From a virus (Duplodnaviria; Heunggongvirae; Uroviricota; Caudoviricetes), in IMG/VR virus record IMGVR_UViG_2529292735_000021, positions 1 to 8,059 of that record: a stretch of 8,059 nucleotides of DNA. One strand, written 5' to 3'. How positions within the stretch are numbered: position 1 is the first letter of the stretch; each line of letters opens with the position of its first letter. This document shows positions 6,721 to 6,910 of this stretch, one piece after another. The position numbers and the translations under genes are program-made. A model generated the notes under the pieces. That model was given only the letters and a program-made list of their open reading frames with translations. It made no database searches and had not been told where the DNA came from.

Positions 6721-6910
6721 TTGCCTTTTCTCAGGATGTTGTCAGATTAAAAAAGATAGATTAGCGCAGGTACCTTTGGTGGATGGCTGGAGGAAAAATG
6801 AAGTCGAGTGGAAAAATCCCAGAAAAATTTTGTTTAACCGAAGTCTTGGTTCACTATGCGAAATACGGAGAAGCTGCAGGAGAATTCTGCTTCATCCTTA
6901 GAGCTTAAAC
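6721..6910 (+). pseudogene. Degenerate second hok/sok-like locus: diverged copy of the hok promoter/leader joined directly to a remnant of the hok 3' coding end; N-terminal toxin coding region deleted
   Basis: 6751-6840 aligns with 5735-5830 (for example aaaaaagatagattagcgcaggtacctttggtggatgg versus aaaaaagcgatagattacgcgcgggtgcctttcggctgatgg, and aaaaattttgtttaaccgaag versus aaaacacttttgtttaaccgagg); 6859-6885 gaaatacggagaagctgcaggaga aligns with the hok EIR-codon region gaaatacggatgagcttctggggag; the ~90 bp encoding the Hok transmembrane segment is absent and the remaining frame stops after a few codons. Confidence 0.5.

Follow-up and report, generated by a model that had tools for sequence, protein, structure and literature searches.

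The DNA analysed here, referred to as the window, is a stretch of 8,059 nucleotides (positions 1 to 8,059 of IMG/VR virus record IMGVR_UViG_2529292735_000021) and is an E. coli-type chromosome segment. Positions 6988–8059 are 99% identical to E. coli K-12 across 3'ETS-leuZ, leuZ, cysT, glyW, and pgsA; the homology to K-12 begins at 6988, and K-12 lacks all of the window DNA to the left of this position. The DNA to the left belongs to a P88-like prophage (Xuanwuvirus, Peduoviridae, P2-like) and forms its right end, with the gene order tail tube and sheath (both on the minus strand), gpD, an extra 386-amino-acid ORF, ogr, and hok/sok. Phages P88 and Chuche share 93–97% identity with the window over positions 1456–3949 and 5410–6162, and the order of tail tube, sheath, gpD, ogr, and hok is the same in P88, Chuche, and the prophage record 520873. 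The features discussed below are as follows.

5451–5711, plus strand: ogr/Delta-like late-gene activator of the P88-like prophage (Pfam Ogr_Delta, E = 5e-14; annotated as ogr/Delta in E. coli records)
5721–6160, plus strand: intact hok/sok locus (Rfam sok, Pfam HOK_GEF, genome and phage annotation)
5798–5896, minus strand: putative Sok antisense gene of the intact copy (position by analogy with R1 sok)
6234–6515, minus strand: 93-amino-acid phage cargo gene between the two hok copies, with a signal-peptide-like N-terminus (phrog_27544, E = 1.6e-59)
6720–6913, plus strand: hok/sok relic (alignments and shuffle statistics)
6942–6971, no strand given: three direct repeats with 11-nt spacing, ATCGCCAC, (A/C)(T/C)CGCCAC, and ACCGCCAT (read from the sequence)
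6988–7112, no strand given: 125-bp att core, attR copy (repeat adjoining yecA; K-12 annotation of 3'ETS-leuZ and leuZ)
7057–7143, minus strand: leuZ, tRNA-Leu(UAA) (ARAGORN, Rfam tRNA)

The late-control/tail gene gpD (2722–3958, plus strand) is present as two overlapping ORFs, 2722–3603 and 3515–3958, and, compared with that of P88, has lost 2 nt near 3577 and gained 9 nt at 3608–3616; given this split gpD, the prophage in the window is probably defective. The 386-amino-acid ORF (4089–5249, minus strand) is inserted between gpD and ogr and has no counterpart in P88, Chuche, and several IMG/VR relatives, in which homology to the window is interrupted over 3949–5410. It had no match in Pfam, PADLOC, or PHROG and may be a moron or defence gene. 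The ORF of the 93-amino-acid cargo gene can be extended to 6629, and its product contains a Cys-rich motif (YPGNCACPYNHARNGSRCGGRSAYSR). This gene is labelled as a hypothetical protein in genome records, phrog_27544 is a family of unknown function, and the gene is under purifying selection (dN/dS of approximately 0.1–0.16). It is also found in a prophage at another att site, adjoining copA, and is conserved beside attP in phages with different att sites. A dN/dS value for ogr was discarded as unreliable because of gap columns in the alignment.

The intact hok/sok copy has a promoter (TTGCCG at 5721–5726, a 17-nt spacer, and TAGATT at 5744–5749) and an fbi-like element (6092–6106) complementary to the mRNA 5' end at 5756–5769, both read from the sequence, together with an mRNA start at approximately 5756, a mok frame (5772–5984) overlapping hok, the hok CDS (5902–6042), and a terminator (6125–6160; inverted repeat I6). 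Positions 5756–5890 matched the Rfam sok family RF01794 (E = 1.8e-7; 43.9 bits, which is under the gathering score of 59), hok matched Pfam HOK_GEF (E = 3.7e-7), and the counterpart of this locus is annotated as Hok/Gef or MokW-like in genomes and phages. The leader was predicted to fold at −58 kcal/mol (z = −3.6 vs shuffles). The Sok gene of this copy was placed on the model of R1 sok. Its putative promoter lies on the minus strand at 5868–5896 (−35 TTGCTC, the reverse complement of 5891–5896; 17 nt; −10 TAACCT, the reverse complement of 5868–5873), and the Sok transcript would span approximately 5862 to approximately 5798 (about 65 nt), with a terminator hairpin at its end. The RNA predicted in this way folded at −28.3 kcal/mol (z = −4.56), and none of 200 shuffles was as good. 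Downstream, the hok 3' UTR and spacer (6043–6233) shared only 71–83% identity between clades of related loci (window vs L004 and L009), whereas the hok CDS shared 99–100%; this contrast suggests that recombination has occurred, with its breakpoint shortly after hok.

Approximately 1 kb downstream of the intact locus, and in the same orientation, lies the segment that we refer to as the relic. The local alignment of 5660–6170 with 6690–7056 had a score of 70, compared with 19.0 ± 2.3 (maximum 28) for 300 shuffles. Under a second scoring scheme, the leader block (5679–5837 vs 6709–6841) stood at z = 26.4 over shuffles, and the block after the deletion junction, which corresponds to the 3' codons of hok (5971–6040 vs 6848–6913), stood at z = 11.5. 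An independent repeat search recovered the same collinear blocks (families D1, D2, D3, D5, and D11), and MAFFT, the repeat search, and Smith-Waterman alignment agreed that 5679–5845 corresponds to 6709–6847 and that, after a jump, 5971–6040 corresponds to 6848–6913. The identity of the relic to the intact copy was 73% in BLAST blocks and 66–68% when gaps were counted, in line with the roughly 70% that had been estimated by eye in the first-pass annotation. The second, diverged, internally deleted hok/sok copy proposed there was thus borne out, with a similarity far above that of shuffled controls, and its limits, first drawn at 6721–6910, were essentially right and have been revised to 6720–6913.

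The homology to the intact copy ends at 5845 (= 6847) and restarts at 5971 (= 6848), so that 125 nt (5846–5970) are gone. Lost with this interval are the central part of mok and, from hok, the Shine-Dalgarno sequence, the ATG at 5902, and codons 1–23, including the transmembrane part, whose absence had been recognized from the outset. What remains begins with the counterpart of the last 22 nt of ogr and the bases that follow (6720–6741), the ogr end being also the first homologous bases of the relic, and continues with a promoter remnant (6739–6762), a leader remnant (6766–6847) that ends at the deletion junction 6847/6848, and hok codons 24–46 (6848–6913), within which a further 4 nt are deleted. 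The relic covers the −10 block of the promoter, the 5' leader of the mRNA, the Sok terminator region on the opposite strand, and the conserved C-terminal codons of Hok (GSLCEIR...), and its 3' UTR, with the fbi element and terminator, is missing. In the promoter remnant, TTGTCA (6739–6744) is separated from TAGATT (6757–6762) by 12 nt, a loss of 5 nt relative to the 17-nt spacer of the intact copy, and TTGCCT (6721–6726) sits 30 nt upstream of TAGATT; both disturbed spacings had been given exactly.

None of the ORFs in the relic matched Pfam HOK_GEF, and these ORFs were not conserved, differing or vanishing among 16 variants; the second copy thus holds no complete toxin in another frame. The putative Sok promoter and 5' tail of the intact copy (5846–5896) fall within the deleted 5846–5970. 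A promoter scan of both relic strands found no promoter-like site, but the scanner was equally blind to the hok promoter of the intact copy (8 of 12 matches) and to the putative Sok promoter, so that its silence on the relic is weak evidence when taken alone. The spacer between TTGTCA and TAGATT was 11–12 nt in all variants (11 nt in the O157-type variant), which is not a workable sigma-70 geometry. The antisense segment of the relic folded at −6.2 kcal/mol (z = +0.86), compared with z = −4.56 for the intact copy, and did not form the terminator hairpin; the sense segment folded no better than shuffles (z = +0.72, compared with −3.6 for the intact leader). An Rfam search for hok/sok over the whole window at E ≤ 1 showed only the intact copy, and the relic region 6680–6990 gave no match at E ≤ 10. 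In a search for tac/fbi pairing, the best complement to the 5' end of the relic was 8/14, the modal value for shuffles; positions 6914–6987 showed no homology to the hok 3' UTRs of the window, L004, or P88 (z of −1.2 to 0.6); and no plus-strand terminator was found. The relic would thus be expected to yield no toxin and no Sok RNA and to leave the intact copy unaffected, a silence that we infer from the sequence alone.

The relic had been described as directly abutting leuZ. It is indeed near this gene, but the two are not in contact: 143 nt intervene before the 3' end of leuZ (7057), first 74 nt that contain repeated ATCGCCAC motifs and then the 69 nt of 3'ETS-leuZ, terminator included. The att core takes in 3'ETS-leuZ, together with the operon terminator, and runs on into leuZ as far as the anticodon loop, covering the 3' 56 nt of this gene. 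A second core, 100% identical, lies beside yecA in strain S1 (L001 4556–4680), so that the two form an attR/attL pair; these are the only copies, and none was present between the two hok copies. Because the core spans the 3'ETS and the 3' half of leuZ, the copies expressed in lysogens are phage-borne, and the displaced duplicate adjoins yecA. The three direct repeats at 6942–6971 were kept in all 16 variants, and a further ATCGCCAC was found on the integrase side of the core (L017 3705–3712). These repeats are likely to be arm-type integrase binding sites of the left arm of attP.

The contig L017 (IMG/VR contig 2548876853_000002, 34.9 kb) carries, in this order, the cargo gene, the relic, the ATCGCCAC repeats, the core (L017 3808–3935), and a gene for a 333-amino-acid integrase. 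It leaves the homology with the window at the equivalent of 7111, beyond which lies phage integrase sequence. The integrase shares 96% identity with that of prophage record 520873 and 59% with Haemophilus HP1 Int, and the attP core is served by an integrase of the HP1/186 type. Judged from this arrangement, L017 is an attP-type junction; its source could be a tandem lysogen rather than an excised circle, and both would join the relic and integrase ends through one core. The order of relic, core, and integrase in L017 indicates that the relic travels with the phage, and the relic is phage DNA just outside the left arm of attP. HP1 integrates into a tRNA-Leu gene, and modules of the 186/HP1 type have long cores and direct arm repeats (PMC3448106). 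The module described here resembles them in its long common core that rebuilds the 3' half of the tRNA, in the direct repeats that flank the core, and in its related integrase, but differs in that the core also carries the whole of 3'ETS-leuZ, which is annotated as a small regulatory RNA in K-12.

Matches to the relic were found in 646 of 5426 complete E. coli genomes (approximately 12%), in 615 cases over at least 80% of the query, at 80–99% identity, and the relic was annotated in none of the matching records. The carriers include O157:H7, in which IS30 took out ogr and the intact hok and left the relic alone. A scan of IMG/VR with a relic-specific pattern returned 22 loci, all of the deleted structure. 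The 16 distinct IMG/VR variants, together with the four genome loci L003, L004, L008, and L009, formed three clades that share one common deletion junction, and the variants differed from one another by up to approximately 16%, beside host flanks that were approximately 99–100% identical. Between clades, the relic was the most diverged segment, with 82–84% identity (JC 0.161–0.193) and small indels; the corresponding identities were 99–100% for the intact hok CDS, approximately 96% for the 93-amino-acid gene, and 97–100% for the host core, and the intact leader differed by 7–9%. JC distances were 0.04–0.12 for the putative arm and 0.05–0.07 for the region upstream of the 93-amino-acid gene, and the gene itself had a dS of 0.11–0.15 and a dN of 0.013–0.023. 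Because the divergence of the relic is equal to or above the synonymous rate of its neighbor, no sequence constraint is indicated. All relic variants were equally far from the intact copy (66–68%), indicating that the two copies parted well before the relic clades did.

When a closer intact parent was sought in phage records, only matches of 74–78% over about 100 nt to ordinary hok leaders were obtained, and searches of E. coli genomes, phages, plasmids, and IMG/VR found no phage with an intact hok directly beside a leuZ-type attP. Neither the relic nor a closer intact parent occurs in a deposited phage or plasmid record; two matches labelled as plasmids are megabase-sized, chromosome-like records with the same relic. 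L025 differs on its left side, but this is due to an IS3-family insertion at approximately 6718–6723 and is therefore uninformative about the ancestral state, and the partial match H69 (strain EC7), considered as another ancestral form, was rejected because an IS1/Tn10-type insertion truncates the relic at 6800.

Taken together, the relic is best explained as a dead, internally deleted hok/sok pseudogene that is carried in a P88-like phage beside attP and does not encode a working regulator, a reading to which we assign a probability of about 0.85. As for its origin, the deletion shared by diverged variants and the phage order in L017 point to duplication or recombination, and decay, in the phage lineage rather than in this chromosome. 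Module exchange or duplication among the phages would thus be the most likely source of the second copy, in preference to two integrations at this site.

The comparator for the origin is L010 (E. coli CP131_Sichuan), a related prophage beside copA. Its block of hok, an acetyltransferase gene, and the 93-amino-acid gene ends at the equivalent of window position 6719. Directly after this cargo block, at L010 2578–2600, are repeats of TGTGGACActaTGTGGAC, which we take to be P2-type arm repeats, followed by the copA promoter region and host DNA. Since the same cargo block is followed by different integration modules in L010 and the window, 6719/6720 is a module junction. Around this junction is a patch of similarity of 10–13 nt (approximately 6709–6719), which reads AATCAGATGAG in ogr, AATCTGACGAA in the window, and AATCAGTCGAA in L010. 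The comparison of L010 with the window shows a swapping of integration modules within P88-like phages, and recombination between a leuZ-type phage (ogr, hok/sok, attP) and another P88-like phage is the simplest reading of how two hok/sok copies came about.

In this scenario, which was built on one comparator (L010) and the similarity patch of 10–13 nt, the ancestral integration module would have run ogr, hok/sok, attP, int. Either a duplication or an exchange with a second P88-like phage by recombination would have set a second block of ogr, hok/sok, and cargo to the left of this module, with the blocks joined at the short similarity patch at approximately 6709–6719. The hok/sok copy next to att would thereby have become redundant and then decayed. 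One 125-nt deletion took the putative Sok promoter and 5' tail, the hok ribosome-binding site, the start codon, and the transmembrane codons together. Toxin and antitoxin were lost in a single event, which would amount to the safe loss of a type I TA locus. The relic has since drifted at an approximately neutral rate, carried passively with the phage.

The recombination scenario has one substantial competitor, a tandem duplication within the phage of the block comprising the 3' end of ogr and hok/sok, followed by the insertion of cargo and the decay of the copy closest to att. Such a duplication, which had also been suggested in the first-pass annotation, would account for the common starting point of both copies in the 3' end of ogr (D2: 5679–5698 vs 6709–6728) and for their identical orientation, and the gap between hok and attP is a site of variable cargo, occupied by com and a methyltransferase gene in Chuche and by the acetyltransferase gene in L010. 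However, the copies are only 66–73% identical, yet the intact leader differs by just 7–9% between clades, and the cargo block of L010 ends exactly at the equivalent of 6719 beside another module, as expected of a junction rather than an insertion. We therefore consider a tandem duplication possible but the less favored of the two routes.

The persistence of the relic raises the question of a role in the attachment site. That a compact phage genome should keep approximately 190 nt of dead sequence in all its variants is mildly unexpected and leaves a small chance of a role beside the attP arm that depends on spacing and not on sequence. The relic might have been retained or co-opted as part of the left arm of attP, by providing spacing, bending, or binding sites for Int, IHF, or excisionase; alternatively, a read-through sense transcript might titrate Sok. 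Either function, if real, would explain why the dead segment has survived in every variant. Only 74 nt separate the end of the relic from the core, and about 30 nt separate it from the ATCGCCAC repeats; no variant is without the relic, and attP sites of the HP1 type are several hundred bp long. Nevertheless, the relic is the fastest-evolving segment, with 82–84% identity between clades and small indels, whereas the arm repeats are conserved. A functional role in the arm, like the titration of Sok by read-through, is very unlikely.

Another origin that had been put forward is the integration of two elements at leuZ, one after the other; applied to this chromosome, it would make the relic the right end of the older one. 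The relic does retain the 3' end of ogr and occupies the place expected for the right end of a P88-like prophage, and tandem lysogeny followed by an internal deletion could historically build a composite of this kind. Against this, no att core lies between the hok copies, and the prophage is a single element enclosed by one pair of 125-bp att sites. The composite is also found in the phage order of relic, core, and integrase in L017, and one identical junction is shared by diverged variants beside near-identical host flanks. Two successive integrations are accordingly very unlikely to have produced the relic.

It had further been suggested that the remnant might remain a source of Sok-like antisense RNA able to cross-regulate the intact copy. 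Such an RNA might repress the intact hok, and a sense RNA acting as a decoy for Sok can be imagined in the same way. The leader blocks are approximately 73–80% identical to the presumed Sok target and terminator region. Against this, the deletion has removed the Sok promoter together with the 5' recognition tail, the scan showed no promoter-like site, and the spacer of the promoter remnant is 11–12 nt; the terminator hairpin is lost, Rfam gives no match, and the divergence is at the neutral level. We regard an active RNA from the relic as highly improbable, and the suggestion found no support. Chance similarity or low complexity, finally, is refuted by the values of z = 26 and 11.5 against shuffles and the collinear blocks.

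The preferred reading, a dead hok/sok pseudogene in a P88-like phage, can be set beside known systems. Compared with hok/sok loci in general, the relic shares clear nucleotide homology but is without the toxin start, the transmembrane part, the Sok promoter and tail, the middle of mok, fbi, and the terminator. Pedersen and Gerdes (1999) reportedly described inactivated hokA–E loci in E. coli K-12, which lie at fixed places in the chromosome and are disrupted by rearrangements, point mutations, or IS elements. The relic resembles these loci as a decayed hok homologue carried silently, and differs from them in that it owes its inactivation to an internal deletion and resides in a phage genome beside attP. 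Among the P88-like phages, P88, Chuche, 500465-2, and 520873 have a 'MokW-like host killing' hok/sok downstream of ogr that corresponds to the intact copy of the window at 95–96% identity. Since the relic, too, is bounded on its left within the 3' end of ogr, it derives from the same kind of ogr and hok/sok arrangement. We found no paper that joins hok with leuZ. A survey of Hok in a 2025–26 preprint reported that hok is enriched in prophages (10.1101/2025.08.07.668861); because the survey is peptide-based, it would not detect the relic.

For annotation, these results mean that an unannotated relic lies beside leuZ in approximately 12% of complete E. coli genomes, those of O157:H7 among them; it can now be labelled as a hok/sok pseudogene in a P88-like prophage or its remnant, and not as a second TA system or an sRNA candidate. 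The relic would serve as an example of safe type I TA loss, in which one deletion removes both the antitoxin promoter and the toxin start. It also illustrates the mosaicism of integration modules in P2-like phages, and it opens no new biological question.

The region of ogr, hok, and the relic is a frequent target of IS elements. In the O157-type strain 9000 (L003 1535–3100), IS30 stands in place of ogr and the intact hok, as in O157:H7-type genomes, and in strain EC7, IS1 with Tn10 tet genes cuts the relic at 6800.
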